Source: an uncultured Candidatus Saccharibacteria bacterium (GTDB lineage Bacteria; Patescibacteriota; Minisyncoccia; UBA6257; 2-01-FULL-56-20). Taken from it: a stretch of DNA of 62,222 nucleotides. Below the pieces are notes generated by a model, which saw nothing but the letters and a program-made list of their open reading frames with translations, was not told the origin of the DNA and made no database searches. Position 1 is the stretch's first letter. Every line of letters begins with the position of its first letter. The stretch lies in assembly GCA_964505005.1 (NCBI GenBank), contig CAZDFQ010000003.1:1-62222 (forward strand), in the 5' to 3' direction. Made by a program: the position numbers and the translations under genes. Positions 2,770-33,659 of the stretch are shown one piece after another.

Positions 2770-4344
2770 ATGATCAAATATTTTATCTATTGCAGAAAAT
2801 CTAGCGAGGAAGAGGAACGGCAAATTCTTTCTATCGAGGCGCAGCAAACTGAACTGCGAGAGTATGCCAAACAGAACAATTTGATTGTGATAAAAGAATT
2901 TGCCGAATCGCAAAGCGCTAAAGAGCCGGGCCGCCCTATTTTCAACAAAATGGTTGAAGAAATTGAGAAAGGCAACGCTCAAGGAATTTTAGCGTGGAAT
3001 CCCGACAGATTGGCGAGAAATTCTATTGATGGCGGGAGAATAATTTATCTCGTGGATACTGGAAAAATCCAATCGCTAAAATTCCCGACATTTTGGTTCG
3101 AAGCGACACCGCAAGGGAAGTTCATGTTGAGCGTTGCCTTTGGACAAGCTAAATATTACACCGACAATTTGAGAGAAAACATTTTGCGCGGGATACGTCA
3201 GAAAATCAGGCGCGGCGAACTATCGGCAAAAGCTCCATTGGGATATTTCAATGAACCTCGTTTGAGGACGATTGAGCCAGACCCCAAGAATTTCAAAAAT
3301 GTAAAAACTATTTTGGAAGCTTTTGCCACCGGAGAATATACACTCACCGCCATTCAGTGCAAAATGTTTTCTCTCGGCTTGGTTGGCAAGGACGGAAAAC
3401 CGCCCCACCTCTCCTCGATAGCCCACATACTTGATAATCCGTTCTATTACGGCGTTTGCCGCTATCGAGGAGAGCTGTATCAAGGATCACACAAGCCAAT
3501 GATTACAAAGAAACTTTTTGACCAAATCCAACAGGCGCTTTTGGATCATGGCAAACCCCGCAAAAAGCGAGGAGATAAAGGGTTTAAATTTCTCGGTTTT
3601 GCGACTTGTGGGGAGTGCGGCTATTGCATTACTGCCGAGCGCAAAATCAAAAAGAGCGGCAAGGAATACGTCTATTATCGTTGCACCAAAAAAAGCAAAA
3701 CCCACAAGTGTTCGCAAAACCGCTTTTTGCAGGAGCCGGAGCTTACCAAGCAAGTTATCCAAAATCTTCAAAAAGTTTCTTTGTCTGATGAGTGGCGCGA
3801 GAAGTATCTCGCGAAAGTGAATGAATGGGAAAATGAAAATCGCCACTCATCAGGTCTTTTCGCTCAAAATCTGCGGGCAAAACTGGAAGAAGTGAAAAAG
3901 AAAATTGACCGCCTTTTGGACGCTCACCTTGAGGGCGCGCTTGAACTCTCGGAATATCAGCAAAAGAAGAACGCCCTCGTTGAGCAAAAGGCGGATTTGC
4001 AACAAAAACTTTCCGATTTTGAGCGAAAAGGCAATCATTGGCTCGAACTCGTGCGGAATTGGATTTTAGACGCCAACCAAGCCAAAAATCTTGCTTCCAC
4101 AGAAAATTTTGATGAAATCAAAAATTTTCTGAAAAAAATCGGCTCGAACCAAAAAATCGAGAACCAGTTGCTCTCGATTTTTTGGAAATCCCCTTGGGAT
4201 TACTTGGCGAAAGCGGGCGCCGAGGGGCGAAGCCCCGAGGCGCTAACCCTCTCAAATCGTGAAATGTGGAGATGGGCGGAATCGAACCGCCGTCTAAAGA
4301 TGATATCGGCGAACCTTCTACGAGCGTATCTAGTTAGGAACTAG
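2770..4344 (+). CDS. Large serine recombinase (resolvase + recombinase + zinc ribbon + coiled coil)
   Basis: YCRKS catalytic Ser, DRLARN, APLGY, CGECG…YYRC…C zinc ribbon, C-terminal coiled coil; last 24 codons are antisense to tmRNA. Confidence 0.95.
   Translation: MIKYFIYCRKSSEEEERQILSIEAQQTELREYAKQNNLIVIKEFAESQSAKEPGRPIFNKMVEEIEKGNAQGILAWNPDRLARNSIDGGRIIYLVDTGKIQSLKFPTFWFEATPQGKFMLSVAFGQAKYYTDNLRENILRGIRQKIRRGELSAKAPLGYFNEPRLRTIEPDPKNFKNVKTILEAFATGEYTLTAIQCKMFSLGLVGKDGKPPHLSSIAHILDNPFYYGVCRYRGELYQGSHKPMITKKLFDQIQQALLDHGKPRKKRGDKGFKFLGFATCGECGYCITAERKIKKSGKEYVYYRCTKKSKTHKCSQNRFLQEPELTKQVIQNLQKVSLSDEWREKYLAKVNEWENENRHSSGLFAQNLRAKLEEVKKKIDRLLDAHLEGALELSEYQQKKNALVEQKADLQQKLSDFERKGNHWLELVRNWILDANQAKNLASTENFDEIKNFLKKIGSNQKIENQLLSIFWKSPWDYLAKAGAEGRSPEALTLSNREMWRWAESNRRLKMISANLLRAYLVRN
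4202..4269. repeat. Arm B, copy 2 (68 bp, inside the recombinase 3' end, ending at the tmRNA CCAC)
   Basis: Direct sequence comparison with 2628-2695. Confidence 0.97.
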
Positions 4345-4584
4345 CAAGATGCTCCGTGTTTGATTTCGCCGGAGCGCATAACAGAGCTTATGGGCTCGGC
4401 TACACCTCCTTGTATAAGACCGGTGTTAATCTAAGAGGTTCAGATTAGCCGATCCTCTGGCTTATGCGTAAGCAAATGCCGGAGCTGCAACTTTTTGGTT
4501 GGCAGTTATTTGTTTTGCGAGTTTAACGACATCGCGGTCGACTCGCCGGTTCGCGACTCATCTTTATCGAAGCCGGTCATCCCC
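4266..4584 (-). ncRNA. ssrA: tmRNA
   Basis: 5' GGGGATGACCGGCTTCGA; 3' T-arm GGCGGTTCGATTCCGCC then CATCTCCAC; acceptor stem GGGGATG/CATCTCC with G3.U Ala identity pair; adjacent to smpB; CCA not fully encoded. Confidence 0.95.
4462..4503 (-). other. tmRNA tag reading frame ANQKVAAPAFAYA*
   Basis: Upstream ATAACT then GCC resume codon; Ala/aromatic-rich end; TAA stop. Confidence 0.85.
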
Positions 4585-4679
4585 GATGACGGAAACAAAT
4601 ATATCATAGATTTCACTAAAAATCAAGCTCAATCTTTTTCCGCGGCGACAACATTGAAGCCGAGGAGTTCGCCGGTTAC

Positions 4680-5117
4680 TTAAAGAGCTTTCCTCATTTC
4701 CCTTTCCGCCGCGCGTTTTTTGAGCAATTCCCGTTTGTCCGATTTTTTTCGGCTTTTGGCCAAGCCGAGTTCAAGTTTTATAAACCCCTTTTTGAGATAA
4801 GCCCGGAGCGGAATCAAAGAAAACGATTTCTGCCGGAGCTTGCCCAAGAGAGTTTGGATTTCATTTTTATGGAGAAGCAGACGCCGCGAGCGATTGGGGT
4901 CGTAATTAGTCGGAACATTTTTCGGCTGATACGCTGGAATCGAGGAATTCAAAAGCCAAAATTCGCCGGCTCGGGGCACGGCATAGCTCGCGGACAAATC
5001 GAACCGACCGCTCTTGGCGCTTTTGACTTCTTGGCCAGTCAATTCAATGCCGGCTTCGTATCTGTCGAGAATTTCGTAATCGAATCTGGCGCGTTTGTTT
5101 TCGGCGATAGGTTTCAT
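4680..5117 (-). CDS. smpB: SsrA-binding protein
   Basis: IAENKRARFDYEILDRYEAGIELTGQEVKS; RSRRLLLHKNEI; basic C-terminal tail. Confidence 0.98.
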   Translation of the reverse strand: MKPIAENKRARFDYEILDRYEAGIELTGQEVKSAKSGRFDLSASYAVPRAGEFWLLNSSIPAYQPKNVPTNYDPNRSRRLLLHKNEIQTLLGKLRQKSFSLIPLRAYLKKGFIKLELGLAKSRKKSDKRELLKKRAAEREMRKAL

Positions 5118-9576: not shown

Positions 9577-12500
9577 ATGGGAAATAATAATGAAGAGAAA
9601 ACAATGAATTCGGACAATAGCCGCTTCGACCCCTCCAAAGAAGAGGAACGAATCCTCGAATTCTGGGAAAAGAACCGGATTTTTGAAAAATCTTTGGAGA
9701 AAACCAAGAACGGCCAGCCGTTCACTTTTTACGACGGCCCGCCGTTCGCCACTGGCCTGCCGCATTACGGCCATATTCTGGCTTCAACAATTAAAGATGT
9801 GATTCCGCGTTATCAGACGATGAAAGGCCGGTTTGTCCGGCGCCGCTGGGGCTGGGACTGCCATGGCCTGCCGATTGAAGAAGTGGTGGAGCGGCACCTC
9901 GGCATTTCCGGCAAAAAAGAGATTGAAAAAATCGGCATCGGAAAATTCAACGCCATCTGCCGCGAGAAAGTTTTGGAATTCGTTGATGAATGGGGCAAAA
10001 TGGTCCGGCGCATTGCCCGCTGGATTGATTTCGACAACTCCTACAAGACCATGGACCGCGATTATATGGAATCGGTCTGGTGGGCATTCAAAAAAATCTA
10101 TGAAAAAGGACTGGTCTATGAAGGCCGCAAGGTTTTGATGTACTGCCCGCGCTGCGAAACCCCGGTGTCCAATTTCGAAGTGGCGATGGACAATTCTTAT
10201 CAGGATGTAACCGAAGATTCGGTAATAGTGAAGTTCAATCTCAAATCTCAAATCTCAAATCTCAAAATTAAAGAATCAACATATTTCTTGGCCTGGACGA
10301 CTACGCCGTGGACTCTTCCCGGAAATGTAGCTTTAGCAGTAGGAAAAGATATTGATTACGTTATGGTTTCTTTGGGTAGCGAAAAATATATTTTGGCCGA
10401 AGCGCTGGCAGAAAAAATTTTCCAAAAAAGGAATTTTAATGTTTTAGAAAAGTTTAAGGGCGAAAAGCTGATTGGCTTAGAATACGAACCGCTCTTCGAA
10501 ATTTCAGCAGTAAAATCAGAAAAAACTTTTAAAGTTTATCCCGGAGATTTTGTCTCTACCGAAGAAGGTACGGGCATAGTTCATACCGCCGTGGTGTACG
10601 GCGAAGAGGATTACGAATTGGGCCAGAAATTCGGCTTGCCGGTGGAGCCGCTTTTGGATGAAAAGGGGGAATTCAATGACAAGGCGCCGAAATTTTTGCA
10701 AAATGTTTATTTCAAAGATGCGGACGCGAAGATTATCGCTGATTTGGAAAAGCGCGGCTCGATTTTCCAGAAAGAAAAAATCACCCACTCCTATCCGTAC
10801 TGCTGGCGGTGTAACGCTCCACTTTTTTACAATGCTATTCCGGCCTGGTTCATTAATATCCAGAAAATTAAGAAAGAATTGATTGATTCCAACAATCGCG
10901 AGATAAACTGGTTTCCGGAACATTTGAAACACGGCCGCTACGAAAAAAGCGTGGAACAAGCGCCGGACTGGAACATTTCCCGCAACCGCTACTGGGGTAA
11001 TCCGATTCCGGTGTGGAAGTGTGAGCAGGGCTGCCCGCCAATCGTGATTGGTAGCATAAAGGAATTGGGCTTGAGCACCAATACTTTTTATTTTGTCCGC
11101 CACGCCGAAGGTCGGCAGAATGTTTTGGGCATAAACTCATCCTGGCCGGAAAAAGAAGTTTATGATTTGACCGAAGCCGGCGTGATGAGGGCGAAAAAAC
11201 TTGCCGAGCGGCTTAAAGAAACGGGCGGCGTAGATTTGATTTTTTCCTCTGACCTTTTACGCACAAAGCACACCGCCGAGATAATCGGCGAAATTTTGAA
11301 AACACCTGTTCAGCTTGATGAGCGGCTGCGGGAATACAATATCGGTGTTTATAATGGAAAATCTGTCGCCGAACTCCAGTCAGCTTTTCCGTCAAAAACA
11401 CGCTGGACCAAGGCGCCCAAAGGCGGAGAAACCTGGACCCAAGTTCAGAAACGGATGGTGGATTTCATCAAAGAAACCGATAAAAAATACCAAAACAAGA
11501 AAATTCTGGTTGTCGGCCACGGCGACCCCTTGTGGCTGGTGCAGAAGTATTACGGTTCAGAACTGGAATATCCGAAATTCGCCGAGCCGTTCAAAATTGA
11601 GGTGGGTATTGACGATTTGCACCGGCCGTCTATCGACGAAATAGTTCTGAAATGCCCGCAATGCGGCGGCCAGGCGCGGCGCGTCAAAGAAATTTTCGAT
11701 TCCTGGCTGGAGGCCGGTTCAATGCCGTTCGCCGAATACCATTATCCTTTTGACCAGAAAGAAATTTTCGAGTCGCGGCTGCCAGCCCAGTTCGTGGCCG
11801 AATACATTGCCCAGACCCGGGCCTGGTTCTATGTGATGCACGTGGTTTCTTTGATTCTTTTTGGCAAGGCGCCGTTTGAAAATGTGGTGACCACCGGCAC
11901 GATTCTGGCCGAAGACGGCAGTAAAATGTCGAAATCCAAAGGCAATTTTCCCGACCCCTGGGAAGTGATTCAAAAATACGGCGTGGACGCTTTGAGATTC
12001 TATCTGATGAATTCAACGGTAATGAAAGCCGACAATCTTAACTTCAGCGTCCGCGATTTGGAAATTATTTACCGGCGGGTGGTGATGATTTTGTGGAATG
12101 TCGGCAAGTATTTCGACATTTACGCGAGGGAAGCAAAATGGCAAAGAGCAAAGCGCGAAAAGCAAGGCGCACCGAATACTTTGGATAAATGGATACTTGC
12201 TCGGACCAAAGAGCTTGTTGCTGGCGTAACTGGGAACTTGGATAGATACGACACAGTGCAGGCCACGCGGCTGATTGCTGAATATATTGATGACTTGTCC
12301 ACCTGGTATGTGCGCCGCAGCCGCGGCCGGAAAGATTCGGATTTTTTCAACACTCTTTATGAGTCGCTCCTTAAAACCAGCCAGATGATTGCGCCGGTGA
12401 TGCCGTATCTCAGTGAAATTTTGTATTTGAACCTTACGCGCAACTTCGGTGCGGCTGAATACGCGGAGTCAGTGCATTTAAGCGACTGGCCCTTCGATGC

Positions 12501-13086
12501 GACTCAGGACGAGCCAAAGACAGAAAAATTAGACAAAGAAGAAAAAATTCTTCTTGAAAAAATGGCGGTTATTCGCGAAGCGGCCAGTTTGGGTATGGCC
12601 ATCCGCAAGACCAAAAACATCCCCGTGCGCCAGCCGTTGCCAGCCCTTTATTTTTCTTTGAAAGAATCAGGCAACCGCCTGATGACTTTTGAACCGGAAT
12701 TGACGCAGCTCCTTTTAGACGAGCTGAATATTAAAAAATTTGACCCGCTGATTGCCGGCGAGAAAAATGAAAATATAATTATGCTGGAAGGGACAGGCAA
12801 AATTGCCAATTTCTATCTAAATGTTTCGGTTTCCGAAGATTTGTATTTGGAAGGCCTAGTGCGGGCCTTGGAACGCGGCATTCAGGAACTCCGTAAAAAG
12901 CAGGGACTCAAAGTCGGCGAATTAGCCGAACTTTTGTGGAACACCGACGATGAGCAGATTAAAAAAGCCCTCGGCTTGATAAACAAAGAAAAAACTTATC
13001 TTCGCTCATTTAAGCAGGATACTTCGGTAGCGGAAATTTTGGAAGTGGACGGAAAGAAAGTGTTTTTGTCTATTGTTAAGAAATAA
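9577..13086 (+). CDS. ileS: Isoleucine--tRNA ligase (type 2) with an inserted histidine-phosphatase domain
   Basis: FYDGPPFATGLPHYGH, GWDCHGLP, WTTTPWTLP, DWNISRNRYWG, KMSKS; RHAE domain at about 11077-11610. Confidence 0.97.
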   Translation: MGNNNEEKTMNSDNSRFDPSKEEERILEFWEKNRIFEKSLEKTKNGQPFTFYDGPPFATGLPHYGHILASTIKDVIPRYQTMKGRFVRRRWGWDCHGLPIEEVVERHLGISGKKEIEKIGIGKFNAICREKVLEFVDEWGKMVRRIARWIDFDNSYKTMDRDYMESVWWAFKKIYEKGLVYEGRKVLMYCPRCETPVSNFEVAMDNSYQDVTEDSVIVKFNLKSQISNLKIKESTYFLAWTTTPWTLPGNVALAVGKDIDYVMVSLGSEKYILAEALAEKIFQKRNFNVLEKFKGEKLIGLEYEPLFEISAVKSEKTFKVYPGDFVSTEEGTGIVHTAVVYGEEDYELGQKFGLPVEPLLDEKGEFNDKAPKFLQNVYFKDADAKIIADLEKRGSIFQKEKITHSYPYCWRCNAPLFYNAIPAWFINIQKIKKELIDSNNREINWFPEHLKHGRYEKSVEQAPDWNISRNRYWGNPIPVWKCEQGCPPIVIGSIKELGLSTNTFYFVRHAEGRQNVLGINSSWPEKEVYDLTEAGVMRAKKLAERLKETGGVDLIFSSDLLRTKHTAEIIGEILKTPVQLDERLREYNIGVYNGKSVAELQSAFPSKTRWTKAPKGGETWTQVQKRMVDFIKETDKKYQNKKILVVGHGDPLWLVQKYYGSELEYPKFAEPFKIEVGIDDLHRPSIDEIVLKCPQCGGQARRVKEIFDSWLEAGSMPFAEYHYPFDQKEIFESRLPAQFVAEYIAQTRAWFYVMHVVSLILFGKAPFENVVTTGTILAEDGSKMSKSKGNFPDPWEVIQKYGVDALRFYLMNSTVMKADNLNFSVRDLEIIYRRVVMILWNVGKYFDIYAREAKWQRAKREKQGAPNTLDKWILARTKELVAGVTGNLDRYDTVQATRLIAEYIDDLSTWYVRRSRGRKDSDFFNTLYESLLKTSQMIAPVMPYLSEILYLNLTRNFGAAEYAESVHLSDWPFDATQDEPKTEKLDKEEKILLEKMAVIREAASLGMAIRKTKNIPVRQPLPALYFSLKESGNRLMTFEPELTQLLLDELNIKKFDPLIAGEKNENIIMLEGTGKIANFYLNVSVSEDLYLEGLVRALERGIQELRKKQGLKVGELAELLWNTDDEQIKKALGLINKEKTYLRSFKQDTSVAEILEVDGKKVFLSIVKK

Positions 13087-26796: not shown

Positions 26797-28188
26797 ATGC
26801 TATTAAAGCTTTCTAAATTTTTCCTCTACGTCTCGGTTTTCAGCGTTTTGATTGTTTTGAACTGGACATTTTTTCCGTTTATTGGCGGCAAGGATTATTT
26901 TTTTCGAACCAGCGTTGAATGGGCGCTGATTTTTTTTATTTTGGGGTTGGGGTTTGAGGCCAGGAAGGGAGAGGGGCTCGCCCGCTTGAAGAAATTGTTC
27001 AAGCAGCCGCTTTTTCTGGCCGTGTCCATTTTCGTTCTGGCGTTTATGTTAGCCACGATTTTTGCCTCTGATTCCCGGGCGGCTTTCTGGTCTAATTACG
27101 AGCGCGGCGAAGGTGGCTTCCAAATGCTTCATTATTATGCCTTTTTCTTTCTTCTGGTTTTTCTTTTTAAAGAAAAGAAGGACTGGCAGCGGCTGTTTTG
27201 GCTGGCGCTGACCGCGGCCGCGGGAATGATTCTTTATGGTATGGGAGCGGCGGCTTTCACCGCTAATCCTCTAACCGGAGAGCTCGCCAATCCTTTTGGG
27301 TTTGTCGGCCCTTATTTTTCTAACGGCAAGTTGAGTAATCCGACGTTCTTGGGCCGATTATTCGTCGGGCCGCGATTTCAAGGGTCGCTTGGCAATCCGG
27401 CTTATGTGGCGCCTTACCTGATGTTCTCGCTTTTTTATATTTTCTGGCTATGGTTGTCCGAGTCCGGCTCGAAACTTTTAAAAAACATTTTATACGGAGC
27501 GGCGGCCGCCTTTTTGACAGTCTTCTTTATTGCTTCTCAAACGCGCGGGGCTTTTGTGGGCTTGGTTGCCGCTACTTTTGTTTTCTTAGCGGTGTTGGTT
27601 ATTGAGAATCAGGCCCGGCGGAAACAATTGCTGGTTCTAATCGCGGTTTTGGTAATTTTGCTGACTGTTCTTATTTATTACCGCAACACGGCTTTCGTTA
27701 GACAATTGCCGAGCGGCCGGCTCTTCGACCTTGCTTTCTCCGACCGGACTTTTCAGACGCGGCTCTGGACTTGGAATTCGGCCTGGCAGGGCTTTAAAGA
27801 GAGGCCGATTCTCGGCTGGGGACCGGAGAATTTTTCCGCGGTGTTCGATAAATATTTTGACCCCCGGCATTATGTTCCTGGCCAGAACTCCGAAACCTGG
27901 TTTGATTATGCTCACAGCCTTGTTTTTGATTATTTAGCCGAGACAGGGATTCTGGGACTCCTGAGTTTTTTGGGGATATTTCTGGTATTTTATCGCGAGT
28001 GGTGGAAAAGGAATTCTGATTTTGACAAGCCGGCTAAAAAGGCCTTGCTGGCGGCCATGCCAGCCGGTTACTTGGTTCAAGGGTTGGCGCTCTTCAATGT
28101 TTTCCCGATTTATCTAAATGTGTTTTTAGTTTTTGCCTTTGCGTGCTATTTATTCTACGGAGCTGAGAAATCAGAAATGAGAAATTAG
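26797..28188 (+). CDS. O-antigen ligase (Wzy_C) family membrane protein
   Basis: About 12 TM helices; GSLGNPAY, SQTRGA, RPILGWGPENF, AHS motifs. Confidence 0.9.
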   Translation: MLLKLSKFFLYVSVFSVLIVLNWTFFPFIGGKDYFFRTSVEWALIFFILGLGFEARKGEGLARLKKLFKQPLFLAVSIFVLAFMLATIFASDSRAAFWSNYERGEGGFQMLHYYAFFFLLVFLFKEKKDWQRLFWLALTAAAGMILYGMGAAAFTANPLTGELANPFGFVGPYFSNGKLSNPTFLGRLFVGPRFQGSLGNPAYVAPYLMFSLFYIFWLWLSESGSKLLKNILYGAAAAFLTVFFIASQTRGAFVGLVAATFVFLAVLVIENQARRKQLLVLIAVLVILLTVLIYYRNTAFVRQLPSGRLFDLAFSDRTFQTRLWTWNSAWQGFKERPILGWGPENFSAVFDKYFDPRHYVPGQNSETWFDYAHSLVFDYLAETGILGLLSFLGIFLVFYREWWKRNSDFDKPAKKALLAAMPAGYLVQGLALFNVFPIYLNVFLVFAFACYLFYGAEKSEMRN

Positions 28189-28252: not shown

Positions 28253-28852
28253 ATGAGCCCCGTAATCAAAAAAGCCATTGCCATAGCCGTTGTCGTTTTC
28301 ATTATCGCTATTGACTATTACGGTTCTTATCTGCCCTGGCGAAAGTCAACTCTTTTTATCGAGGCCATGCAAAGCACTTCGGCAATAAGAACAATCAGCG
28401 ACTTTGAACGGATATTTTCTATCCCTCTTGACTATTCCTCGCCAATCGGTCAGGAAGAACTGGTGCGCAGCGTTGCTAATAGTATTATTAATAGCTTGAA
28501 TTCCATCCCCCAGTCCCAGGGGATTAAAGAAATGATAAGGTACGTTGAAAATTATTACGAACCGATTATTAATCGCGGCCGGGGAATGAGTTTTGGCCAG
28601 AATCTTTATCTTTTGGGGGCTTTGAACGAGAGCGCCTATTTAAAAACCCGCGAAATCAGCTATCTTAATAGCGCTGAGAAGTATTTCAAAAAAGCCCAGG
28701 AATTAGGACCAAAACGGCCCCAGCCGCTTTACGGTCTTTTCGATGTTTACCGGCTGAAAGGCGACAAGGCCGCGGCCGAAGCCATCGGTCGGCAAATTAT
28801 CAGTCAGTGGCCTGATGATGAAAAAATTCTAGCGGCTTTCAAAAGTTTATGA
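28253..28852 (+). CDS. TPR-like protein with an N-terminal TM helix (possibly the split C-terminus of the ligase)
   Basis: AEKYFKKAQELGPKRPQ TPR-like helix pair. Confidence 0.7.
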   Translation: MSPVIKKAIAIAVVVFIIAIDYYGSYLPWRKSTLFIEAMQSTSAIRTISDFERIFSIPLDYSSPIGQEELVRSVANSIINSLNSIPQSQGIKEMIRYVENYYEPIINRGRGMSFGQNLYLLGALNESAYLKTREISYLNSAEKYFKKAQELGPKRPQPLYGLFDVYRLKGDKAAAEAIGRQIISQWPDDEKILAAFKSL

Positions 28853-29085: not shown

Positions 29086-29595
29086 ATGAAGCCTTGGATT
29101 GACAGAAAAACAGAAGTTAGAAAATTCAAAAAAGAAGAGGCCAGCTGGTTAGCCGGCGTTATTGATGGAGAGGGGTCAATTGGTTTATATAATTATGGCA
29201 GAGAGGGCAGGAGGGTATGTATTCAGCTGGCTAATACGAACAAGGAGTTTGTTTGTAAGGTTAGAAGGATTGTGGGCTGCGGGTCTCAAATTAACAGAAC
29301 TGGCTGGCATAAAAGCCACAAAGGGAGGAAAGCATTATACCTATACAGCTTGAAAGGTTCAAACAGATGTTATCGGGCTTTAAAGCAGATTGTGCCGTAT
29401 CTGATTATAAAGAGAAAGAAAGCAATAGATATTTTGAAAGAACTCGAAGAAAAACCGTTTGGAAGATGGTTGAACGCCCTTCCAGAATACAGAAAGATGC
29501 ATTCGGATAGATTAAAAAAGCAATGGCAAAATCCGATAATAAGGCAAAAAATGATTGAGGGGATAAAAAGATATTATGAATCAAGAAAGAAGTAA
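29086..29595 (+). CDS. Free-standing single-motif LAGLIDADG homing endonuclease
   Basis: [14 protein letters not shown]; IQLANT; YLIIKRKKA; overlaps the gmd start by 20 bp. Confidence 0.88.
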
Positions 29596-31777
29596 AAAAA
29601 TTGCTTTAGTTTTCGGAGCGACGGGACAAGATGGCTCATATTTGATTGAGCTTCTGCTTGGTAAAGATTACGAAGTCCACGGCGTTATTCGTCGCGCCTC
29701 AACATTCAACACCAGTCGCATTGACCATCTTTACCAAGACCCGCACGTGAACGGCGTAAAGATGTTTCTTCACTACGGCGATTTGGCTGATGCCAACACC
29801 ATCCGCAAACTCATTTATAGAATTAAGCCGGACGAGATTTACAATCTTGGCGCCCAGTCGCATGTCCGGGTAAGTTTTGACATCCCGGAATACACCGCCA
29901 ACATCACGGCTTTGGGAGCCCTGCGCGTGCTCGAAGCCATTAAGGATTACGAAGAATACACCGGCAAAAAAGTCAAATTTTACCAAGCTTCGAGTTCAGA
30001 GATGTTCGGAGCCGCGCCGCCGCCGCAGAATGAGAACACGCCTTTCCAGCCCCGCAGCCCCTACGGCATTTCCAAGGTTTTCGCTTTTTACACCACCAAG
30101 AACTACCGCGAGGCCTACGGGATTTTTGCGGTCAACGGCATACTGTTCAATCACGAAACAGTAGCCTCATTTATGCCGATGTTTTGTAAAAAGAAAGACG
30201 AAAAGGAATTTGATATAAGGCCAATCAGTGAAATAGTAGAATTTGACGAAAGCGTGCATCGTTATCAATCAAAACAGGTCTCCGGCATTCAGGTATGGGG
30301 GGAAGATGGTTGGGTGGATGCGACTCATGCTTCTGCCTATCCTCATGATATTGAAAATGACAATAAGAAGCCGCGTTTCATAAATGCACGTATCGGAGCG
30401 TATCTGGCAACTTCGAGCCATATTGCTTTTATGGACGGCAAAGAAGAGAAAAAAACAGCAGAAATTTCAATCGGCGATAGAATGGAGATGATAGACCTCC
30501 CGGATTCTCCGCAAAAGAATTGCATTTCAGAGGAGGAGGCGGAACTTATGGGTATGATGGTGGGCGACGGTTCATATAGCCACGCCAAACGCGGAATTGG
30601 AGTGTACGGAAAGTTTACTAATTCATCGCCAGCGGTAAGGGAGTATTTTGATTTATTGTGGCGCAAAGTTACGAGAGGAAGTACGCGTTACCATCCTACT
30701 CGTTCCGGATTTAAGCCAGAGAAGGTAGTTGGGCAGCTTATTTTGAATGGCAATAATGAGTGGCTGCGGAAACTTGATATGTATAACCGCGATAGAACGA
30801 AACGGGCGCCTAAAGTCATTCTGAATGCTCCGAAACATATCATGACGGCTTTTCTCCGCGGCTACAATGCTACCGATGGATTAAAATCCAATCCTTGCGT
30901 ATATGAATTCAGAAATTTTAAGACCAATTCAGCAACCTTGGCGATGGGGCTATGGTATCTCATTGACCAGACAACAGAGCAGGATATTAATCTTACCGTA
31001 GAAACTAAAGACGACGGAAGAATATTTTATTCTTTGAACATCCTTTCTACAGTTGATAACAAAGAGAAAGAAGAAACAGTAAGGGAGCTTATTGTTGCTG
31101 GGGTTTCGCAACGCGGAATGAATCGGATGAGTGGTATATCCCGGACATTTATCAGGAAGATTCAGCGCGGCGGCTCTTGCGAACCCATTCATCACTTGCG
31201 CAAAGATTCTCTGGAGGTGAAAAAGATTGTTGAATTACCTCGCTATCAAGGCTGGTTTTATGATTTGGAAACATCATCTGGAGAATTTCACTGCGGAATT
31301 GGGAAAATTCATGTCCATAATAGTCCGCGGCGCGGCGAGACATTCGTTACCAAGAAGGTTACTCGCGGCATTGCGCGGATTCTGGCCGGTCTGGACAAAA
31401 AAATTTATTTGGGCAACCTGGAAGCCAAACGGGACTGGGGTTATGCGCCGGAATACATGGAAGCGGCCTGGTTGATGATGCAGCAGCCGGCAGCGGACGA
31501 CTATGTGGTCGGCACCGGCGAAAATCACTCGGTTAAAGAATTTGTGGAAAAATCTTTCGGGCTGGTTGGAATTTCTGACTGGCAAAAGCACATTGATATT
31601 GACCCGCGCTACTACCGGCCAACCGAAGTCGGAAACTTGGTGGCCGACGCCCGGAAAGCCAAAGAGAAACTCGGCTGGCAGCCAAAAATCAGATTCGATG
31701 ATTTAGTCAAAATTATGCTGAAGCACGACTTGGAAAAACACGGACTTAAGGACTACGCCGAGAAAATTCAGTTATAA
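29576..31777 (+). CDS. gmd: GDP-mannose 4,6-dehydratase with a 388-aa intein (345-aa extein)
   Basis: [38 protein letters not shown]|[16 protein letters not shown]. Confidence 0.97.
30158..31321 (+). mobile_element. Intein with a LAGLIDADG endonuclease; first residue Thr
   Basis: Interrupts FNHE/SPRRG; block B ATSSH; blocks [12 protein letters not shown] and [10 protein letters not shown]; block F FYDLET; block G IHVHN followed by Ser+1. Confidence 0.93.

Positions 31778-31797: not shown

Positions 31798-33659
<1,862 letters not shown>

Follow-up and report, generated by a model that had tools for sequence, protein, structure and literature searches.

Introduction

In the definition of Perler type, class 1 inteins carry Ser1, Thr1 or Cys1 (PMC5222942), but Thr1 'has not been observed' (2010; Tori et al., PMC2807308). 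Later papers state that the first residue 'can be cysteine or serine' (Beyer et al. 2020, PMC7664689) and that position 1 'is a catalytic cysteine or serine' (a March 2026 paper, PMC13014065). Here we analysed a 62,222-nt stretch of DNA from an uncultured Candidatus Saccharibacteria bacterium (contig CAZDFQ010000003.1; hereafter the window), in which the gene gmd, encoding a GDP-mannose 4,6-dehydratase (GMD), is interrupted by an intein whose first residue is a threonine. It represents a natural and conserved Thr1 form of oxyester class 1 intein, and both its host protein and its insertion site are new. We found no report of a natural Thr1 intein in the papers and preprints searched, which do not cover most subscription journals, so that an earlier mention is possible; within the same coverage there was no mention of a GMD intein. 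The original prediction, made from the sequence alone, had set this Thr1 against a literature in which class 1 inteins start with Cys or Ser, and the statements quoted above agree with it. Thr1 is allowed chemically and reported never to have been observed: a deep, conserved Thr1 clade would fill this textbook gap.

The closest described systems are the cysteine-less class 1 inteins with Ser1 and Ser+1 (or Thr+1), for example the archaeal PolB inteins Tli Pol-2, Psp-GBD Pol and PI-PkoII/TkoII, and those of Mja TFIIB and PolB16 OarG. Like them, the GMD intein has oxygen nucleophiles at both junctions, a TxxH motif, an Asp in block F, a terminal His-Asn and an upstream NX-type His, and PI-PkoII and Mja TFIIB are among its best matches of solved structure. 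Unlike them, it has a natural Thr1, a Pro instead of Lys or Arg before the NX His and an extra helix-turn-helix (HTH) module, and it resides in a sugar-nucleotide enzyme rather than in a replication protein. With the TliVMA intein (PDB 7qss/7qsu) and PI-SceI, which are the best Foldseek and profile matches, it shares the combination of a HINT domain with a two-motif LAGLIDADG endonuclease; these two inteins, however, start with Cys1, reside in V-ATPase subunit A, lack the Tyr61/His63 pair described below and are only 10-17% identical to the GMD intein. Class 3 inteins (MP-Be DnaB, MchDnaB1) also combine an unusual residue 1 with Ser or Thr at +1, but they need a non-nucleophilic residue 1 together with a Trp/Cys/Thr triplet, where the GMD intein has Thr1, Ala90, Asp369 and Val386. 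Finally, the inteins of archaeal UDP-glucose/GDP-mannose dehydrogenases (Novikova et al. 2016) likewise reside in a nucleotide-sugar enzyme, outside the usual bias towards replication and repair proteins; their hosts are dehydrogenases of COG1004, whereas the host here is a 4,6-dehydratase of the short-chain dehydrogenase/reductase type.

Insertion site in GDP-mannose 4,6-dehydratase

The host gene and its parts are as follows:

29576..31777, forward strand: gmd open reading frame (ORF), encoding a 733-aa precursor
29576..30157, forward strand: N-extein of gmd, aa 1-194, ending in GILFNHE; the first stretch matched by TIGR01472 and PF16363 covers aa 8-195
30158..31321, forward strand: intein, 1164 nt, 388 aa, made of a HINT domain, a LAGLIDADG endonuclease and an HTH insert
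31322..31777, forward strand: C-extein of gmd, from SPRRGETF to the stop codon; second stretch matched by TIGR01472 and PF16363

The 733-aa protein scores 496 bits against TIGR01472 (gmd), above the curated equivalog cut-off of 415, and matches PF16363 with E=9e-129. Both matches fall into two stretches that break at residue 195 and flank the insert. The insertion point lies between FNHE and SPRRG in the conserved substrate-binding motif of GMD, which belongs to the active site. At the 5' junction the DNA reads AAT CAC GAA / ACA GTA GCC TCA TTT ATG CCG, the insert starting at 30158, and at the 3' junction (31321/31322) it reads CAT GTC CAT AAT / AGT CCG CGG CGC GGC; an intein-less gmd site reads TTCAATCACGAA/AGTCCGCGG, the slash marking the insertion point in each case. 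The intein begins with TVASFMPMF, ends with HVHN and is followed by a Ser. Removal of the insert leaves a GMD of 345 aa in which FNHESPRRG is contiguous, and the best 120 database matches to this spliced protein are all about 340 aa long, intein-free and 74-82% identical to it; they come from Parcubacteria, Liptonbacteria and other Patescibacteria. The organism that carries the gene is very probably a CPR bacterium of Parcubacteria type. Since excision restores FNHESPRRG and the closest GMDs are intein-free, the boundaries of the intein are unambiguous. The predicted insertion within FNHESPRRG is hence established by the interrupted TIGR01472 match and by the clean excision, and so is the predicted VHN end before Ser+1 (CAT AAT / AGT). 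Other boundaries, for instance a start at Ser4 or Cys10, were considered and rejected: the sequence in intein-free GMDs is FNHESPRRG, and the Thr1 inteins can be aligned residue for residue with their Ser1 and Cys1 homologs.

Reality and conservation of Thr1

The first codon of the intein is an ACA:

30158..30160, forward strand: Thr1 codon ACA, proposed N-terminal nucleophile

As ACA differs from the serine codon TCA by one base, a sequencing or assembly error could in principle have turned a Ser1 into a Thr1. Two observations refute this. Firstly, the assemblies of other sequencing runs (SRR5161805 and SRR5161795) contain contigs that encode the identical 733-aa protein. Secondly, Thr1 occurs in 29 other species-level genomes of bacteria and DPANN archaea, where it is encoded by ACA, ACG, ACC or ACT, that is, by all four Thr codons. 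A search with the intein alone returned 105 protein matches, nearly all of them GMDs interrupted at the same site; in most of these the intein starts with Ser, in some with Cys, and in the closest relatives with Thr. We then scanned one genome per GTDB species, which gave 86 loci, of which 80 were kept, and established that homologous inteins occupy the same GMD site in at least 80 species-level genomes. The automatic tally of residue 1 was as follows:

Thr1: 31 loci (ACA 13, ACG 12, ACC 4, ACT 2)
Cys1: 23 loci (TGT 12, TGC 11)
Ser1: 23 loci (AGC 11, TCG 8, TCC 3, TCA 1)

Of the 31 Thr1 entries, 27 are new genomes; the window gene and a Liptonbacteria locus account for the other four, each being present twice. 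Two further Thr1 loci beyond the tally (L028 and L061) bring the total to the 29 other genomes. These are labelled as Patescibacteria (Liptonbacteria, Saccharibacteria, Peribacteria and others), as other bacteria (Omnitrophota, Planctomycetia/Pirellulales, Saprospiraceae and other Bacteroidota, Cellvibrionaceae and a deltaproteobacterium) and as DPANN archaea (one Nanoarchaeota and one Woesearchaeota).

Thr1 is kept while the identity of the intein to that of the window drops to 31-45%. The retention of Thr through synonymous codon changes over such deep divergence is the pattern expected of selection on the Thr side chain. The ratio of nonsynonymous to synonymous substitution rates (dN/dS) of the intein is 0.06-0.12 where dS is unsaturated, similar to that of the exteins; dS is saturated in most pairs, and these intein values come from four pairs only. 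No stop codon was present inside about 75 parsed inteins. Thr1 is therefore real and selected rather than an error, and it is probably functional. The original prediction had called this a rare natural Thr1 intein: natural it is, and unreported in the literature searched, but it is not a lone case, being conserved across a whole clade. A Thr1 common in the family had been named beforehand as an outcome that would count against the idea; Thr1 did prove common, which we read instead as excluding an error and as showing long-term selection.

Architecture and catalytic blocks

The blocks and domains of the intein are listed with their coordinates:

30158..30196, forward strand: block A; Pro7 is invariant, and Met6 occurs in the Thr1 clade only, its place being taken by Thr in Ser1 and Cys1 members
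30338..30346, forward strand: Tyr61-Pro62-His63, an NX-like motif upstream of block B, found by covariation across homologs
30410..30421, forward strand: block B, Thr85-Ser-Ser-His88 (TxxH), from the family alignment
30536..30577, forward strand: LAGLIDADG motif 1, catalytic Asp137 (GDG), with a weak PF14528 match
30842..30886, forward strand: LAGLIDADG motif 2, catalytic Asp240 (TDG)
31049..31192, forward strand: HTH insert of about 45 aa, three predicted helices, intein residues ~300-340, before block F
31250..31297, forward strand: block F; Asp369 is F:4, and Phe367 and Cys379 are specific to the Thr1 clade
31298..31324, forward strand: block G, IGKIHVHN, with Ser+1; His387 (CAT), Asn388 (AAT) and the Ser+1 codon AGT at 31322-31324

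The 186 distinct inteins aligned from this site comprise 78 Ser1, 65 Cys1 and 43 Thr1 members. Thr85 is present in 184 of the 186 (the other two have Ser) and His88 in all 186. Within the Thr1 clade Thr85, His88, His387 and Asn388 are invariant and Asp369 is found in 42 of 43 members. Every junction parsed has Ser+1, in a parsing pattern that demanded Ser, Cys or Thr at this position. The position of the usual block F His aligns with a Glu or a gap, the same situation as in PI-PkoII. The intein thus has the features of class 1: a nucleophilic residue 1, Thr at B:7, His at B:10, Asp at F:4, His-Asn and Ser+1. It does not have those of class 2, whose residue 1 is a non-nucleophilic Ala (here Thr, with Ser at +1), nor the Trp(B:12)/Cys(F:4)/Thr(G:5) triplet of class 3. 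The prediction from the raw sequence had been accurate on all these points: the TxxH of block B, the Asp and the missing His of block F, the lack of a class 3 Trp/Cys signature and an HTH-like segment ahead of block F were recovered, and block residues and missing triplet alike assign the intein to class 1 and not to class 2 or 3.

None of the Pfam and NCBIfam intein models matches the insert, which gives only a LAGLIDADG_3 (PF14528) match just below the cut-off and weak matches to intein-containing DnaB, VMA and IF2 models. Since the curated models miss it, its identity as an intein rests on homologs, blocks and fold. In a single-sequence comparison its C-terminus aligns to blocks F and G of PI-PkoII, and a profile of the family matches the TliVMA intein, PI-PkoII and the Mja TFIIB mini-intein among PDB sequences. 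An AlphaFold2 model built from a 58-sequence alignment reached a mean predicted local distance difference test score (pLDDT) of 91 and a predicted TM-score (pTM) of 0.88. Its top PDB matches by Foldseek are endonuclease-containing inteins (7qss with E=1.9e-20, then 2cw7, 1dq3 and 1vde), the inteins named among the matches being TliVMA, PI-PkoII, PI-PfuI and PI-SceI; further matches are the LAGLIDADG endonucleases I-SceI and I-DmoI and the mini-inteins VidaL, NrdJ-1 and gp41-1. The modelled insert is accordingly predicted to have a HINT fold. The catalytic acids of the endonuclease are conserved in the Thr1 clade (Asp137 in 42 of 43, Asp240 in 43 of 43). The HTH segment of a homolog (P0016) passes the Pfam cut-offs of HTH_3 and HTH_7; the insert is present in 40 of 43 Thr1, 2 of 78 Ser1 and 9 of 65 Cys1 inteins and is probably an extra DNA-binding module of the endonuclease.

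That Pfam models overlook the window insert, and that two homologous inteins (L050 and L071) contain frameshifts, would fit a decaying remnant that no longer splices, in which case gmd would be a pseudogene. We consider this very unlikely: the gene is an unbroken ORF, as are about 75 homologs, the low dN/dS given above indicates constraint, the catalytic positions are conserved, the structure model is confident and the gene is the only gmd of the window, at the head of fcl-like genes.

Residues covarying with the nucleophile

Two residues upstream of block B follow the nature of residue 1. Tyr61 is found in 43 of 43 Thr1 and 76 of 78 Ser1 inteins and in none of the 65 Cys1 inteins. His63 is found in 41 of 43 Thr1, 68 of 78 Ser1 and 12 of 65 Cys1 inteins, and 9 of these 12 are recent Ser-to-Cys switchers. 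Moreover, in every nested Ser-to-Cys switch of the Eremiobacterota clade (about 5 separate ones) Tyr61 was replaced by Asn or Met. Pasch et al. 2023 (PMC10189870) described an NX motif ahead of block B, [K/R]-His, whose conservation is confined to Ser1/Ser+1(Thr+1) inteins; its His is close enough to Ser1 for a hydrogen bond, three inteins need it for splicing, and it is 'invariably preceded by Arg or Lys'. His63 appears to be such an NX-type His, conserved upstream of block B. The preceding residue departs from the published motif, being Pro62 in 40 of 43 Thr1 inteins; Ser1 GMD inteins have Arg or Lys there in 56 of 78 cases. Because they share the Tyr61/His63 signature with the Ser1 members, we place the Thr1 inteins with the oxygen-nucleophile (oxyester) class 1 inteins.

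On top of this shared signature, the Thr1 clade has substitutions of its own: Met6 (Thr in the others), Pro62 (Lys or Arg in the NX motif), Phe367 (Leu or Val in the others), Cys379 (in 35 of 43 Thr1 inteins; Ala in nearly all Ser1 and Cys1 homologs) and His385 (also in 35 of 43; Val, Ile or Trp in the others). Speculatively, these five residues may accommodate the extra methyl group of Thr.

Family tree and switching of the nucleophile

Neighbour-joining trees were built from 134, then from 186 distinct inteins at the GMD site. The main Thr1 clade contains 45 sequences, 42 with Thr1 and 3 nested ones with Ser1. A partial sequence, P0007, belongs to the same clade and starts with SVASFMPMF; its Ser1 codon is TCG, one step from ACG. 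P0317 (TNTAETP) and P0330 (TNTPETP) form a Thr1 lineage of their own, surrounded by Cys1 and Ser1 sequences. Within the Ser1 clade of the Eremiobacterota, about 5 Cys1 groups are nested; a Chloroflexota/Cyanobacteria clade and several deep lineages also have Cys1. Fitch parsimony on the neighbour-joining tree gave at least 15 changes of residue 1, an approximate count. To judge from this distribution, Thr would be interchangeable at residue 1 with the known nucleophiles Ser and Cys. Relatives in other host proteins, including those at a PolB site (YGD/S...HN/TDS), are all Ser1, and no Thr1 outside the GMD site was seen among the relatives found in 1.84 billion representative proteins. The family spreads over Patescibacteria, Omnitrophota, Bacteroidota, Planctomycetota, Eremiobacterota, Chloroflexota, Cyanobacteria and DPANN archaea, and is an abundant intein family within a metabolic enzyme.

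Cysteine-independent inteins are rare and are wanted for protein ligation under oxidising conditions. The presence of Cys1, Ser1 and Thr1 forms of one intein at one site, with Tyr61 tracking the oxygen nucleophiles, leads to testable design rules, which bear on why Cys-to-Ser swaps usually kill engineered inteins. If true, the family offers a natural series with repeated switches for working out the requirements of each nucleophile, and a source of new cysteine-independent splicing tools.

Some members of the family deserve separate mention. In the Eremiobacterota/Vulcanimicrobiota inteins (L036-L063), the Ser1 codon is AGC in 11 loci and TCN in 12, with nested Cys1 variants encoded by TGC. 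This looks like a switch between serine codon families through a functional Cys intermediate; a Thr codon (ACN) is the other possible one-step intermediate. In two loci from long-read Eremiobacterota metagenome-assembled genomes (L050, L071), the two splice junctions, N- and C-terminal, do not share a reading frame, because of either a frameshifted intein or a long-read indel error. The deep Cys1 GMD inteins (L034, L035, L037; P0097-P0101 and related) end in Ala-, Gly-, Ser- or Lys-Asn, without the penultimate His, and they also lack His378.

Proposed splicing pathway

We consider it likely that the element is a splicing-competent class 1 intein that uses Thr1 as its nucleophile. The canonical four-step class 1 pathway is favoured because of the oxyester signature, the conserved blocks and the precedent of the Tli Pol-2 intein, whose S1T mutant is cited as splicing (PMC2807308). 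In this pathway, the HINT domain would fold within the 733-aa precursor by bringing together an N-terminal segment of about 110 aa (blocks A and B) and a C-terminal one of about 35 aa (blocks F and G). The hydroxyl of Thr1 would attack the carbonyl of Glu(-1) in an N-O acyl shift, giving a linear oxyester, helped by Thr85 and His88 of block B and by the NX-like pair Tyr61/His63. Transesterification by Ser+1, with Asp369 of block F, would then give the branched intermediate; cyclisation of Asn388, aided by His387, would release the intein; and an O-N shift would form a native Glu-Ser bond and yield an active 345-aa GMD. The freed intein would cut intein-less gmd alleles and home into them.

Alternatively, Thr1 might not be the nucleophile at all: Ser+1 might attack the Glu(-1)-Thr1 bond directly, as in class 2, or the reaction might be relayed through an internal Cys such as Cys379, as in class 3. 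The near restriction of Cys379 to the Thr1 clade, the other clade-specific changes around the active-site blocks and the reported absence of Thr1 among characterised inteins all speak for this. We nevertheless hold it to be quite unlikely. Cys379 is missing from 8 of 43 Thr1 inteins, the class 3 triplet is replaced by Ala90, Asp369 and Val386, and the known class 2 inteins use Cys+1, where all parsed junctions here have Ser+1. In addition, the strict conservation of Thr1 through synonymous codons would lack an explanation, and the presence of Tyr61 and His63 goes with an oxygen nucleophile at residue 1.

Several points weigh against Thr1 acting as an ordinary class 1 nucleophile. As a nucleophile, Thr is weaker and sterically hindered. 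The missing Thr1 inteins in earlier catalogues could mean that Thr1 is generally disfavoured, and the substitutions proper to the Thr1 clade might point to an altered mechanism instead of a mere exchange of residues. That Tyr61/His63 correspond to the published NX motif is deduced from sequence pattern and covariation, and splicing is, for all GMD inteins, a prediction from their sequences. The trees carry no support values, so that the switch counts are approximate. Finally, no second gmd is present in the 62,222 nt of the window, an argument for a need to splice whose weight is limited to the window. Taking both sides together, we give about even chances to a more specific proposal: that this is the first documented natural Thr1 clade, in which Thr1 is a working nucleophile that needs a tuning of its own (Met6, Pro62, Phe367, Cys379, His385) atop the shared Tyr61/His63, at a site where Cys, Ser and Thr all occur.

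Mobility and gene neighbourhood

The composition and divergence of the intein differ from those of its host. The G+C content at third codon positions (GC3) of the intein, 42%, falls short of that of the exteins (59-62%) and of the two genes that follow gmd (57-61%). For several pairs from different phyla, dN is smaller in the intein than in the exteins: it is 0.19 against 0.41-0.51 between Saccharibacteria L007 and Omnitrophota L014, and 0.26 against 0.38-0.43 between the window and Nanoarchaeota L016. The two DPANN inteins (L016 from Nanoarchaeota and L020 from Woesearchaeota) are 64-66% identical to the window intein. This suggests transfer of the intein between domains in groundwater communities, intein and extein similarity having been compared for the window-L016 pair only. 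The low dN, the low GC3, the intein-free closest GMDs and the conserved endonuclease residues point to active homing between phyla and domains. They indicate an actively homing element with a predicted endonuclease activity.

The genes directly downstream of gmd are:

31798..32721 and 32718..33659, forward strand: two tandem GDP-L-fucose-synthase-like genes, overlapping by 4 nt

They score 218 and 300 bits against NF047922, below its 500-bit cut-off, and also match PF01370; the product of the cluster may be a GDP-6-deoxyhexose other than, or besides, fucose. The surrounding glycan cluster comprises a Wzy_C-like gene upstream of gmd and, downstream of it, the Fcl-like pair, a HAD phosphatase, a nucleotidyltransferase and glycosyltransferases. 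Because gmd is the sole one in the window and Fcl-like genes follow it, splicing is presumably needed for the synthesis of a GDP-fucose-type sugar.

This context is also what speaks for a regulatory intein, whose slow or condition-dependent splicing would gate GDP-fucose or glycan synthesis, as the original prediction had proposed. The insertion lies in an active-site motif, so that the precursor should be inactive, it is located in a glycan-synthesis gene cluster, and conditional splicing is documented for some inteins (for example in PMC6195587). However, neither junction has a redox-sensitive Cys, the closest GMDs are intein-free, and the conserved endonuclease together with the composition and dN patterns fits a selfish mobile element. 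The proposed gating is hence unsupported, and we regard it as unlikely: conserved endonuclease residues, low GC3 and inteins more alike than their exteins point to an ordinary mobile intein, on whose splicing the function of GMD depends.

A free-standing ORF of 169 aa with a single LAGLIDADG motif (29086..29595, forward strand, GC 38%) adjoins gmd upstream and overlaps its start by 20 nt. It is missing from the syntenic Liptonbacteria locus L003. We considered it as a relative of the intein endonuclease and rejected this, as BLASTP revealed no similarity between the two; it is a putative second, independent element of homing-endonuclease type at gmd. Further upstream, the Wzy_C (O-antigen-ligase-like) gene (26797..28188) and a 199-aa ORF (28253..28852) are separate in the window and fused into a 681-aa ORF in Liptonbacteria L003 (755..2800).

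Public annotation and other observations

Several C-terminal 'GMD' entries of about 305-330 aa on long contigs might be taken for split or broken genes. This was rejected, since at L003 an intact 719-aa ORF spans 2813..4972. The entries P0013, P0018, P0022, P0041, P0043 and P0090 are intein-containing GMDs cut to this length in annotation, the intact ORF having been confirmed at the one locus checked (L003, for P0013). P0043 and P0090 are annotated as 'XRE family transcriptional regulator', presumably because of the HTH of the intein. Intein-containing gmd genes are thus often truncated or misnamed in public annotation.

Elsewhere in the window, an isoleucyl-tRNA synthetase gene (9577..13086, forward strand; TIGR00392, E=4e-251) contains an unusual insert between the two halves of the synthetase, a histidine-phosphatase/phosphoglycerate-mutase-like domain of about 155 aa (aa ~503-657; PF00300, E=2e-34). 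A large serine recombinase with Resolvase, Recombinase and Zn-ribbon domains is encoded at 2770..4344 on the forward strand and possibly marks an integrated mobile element.

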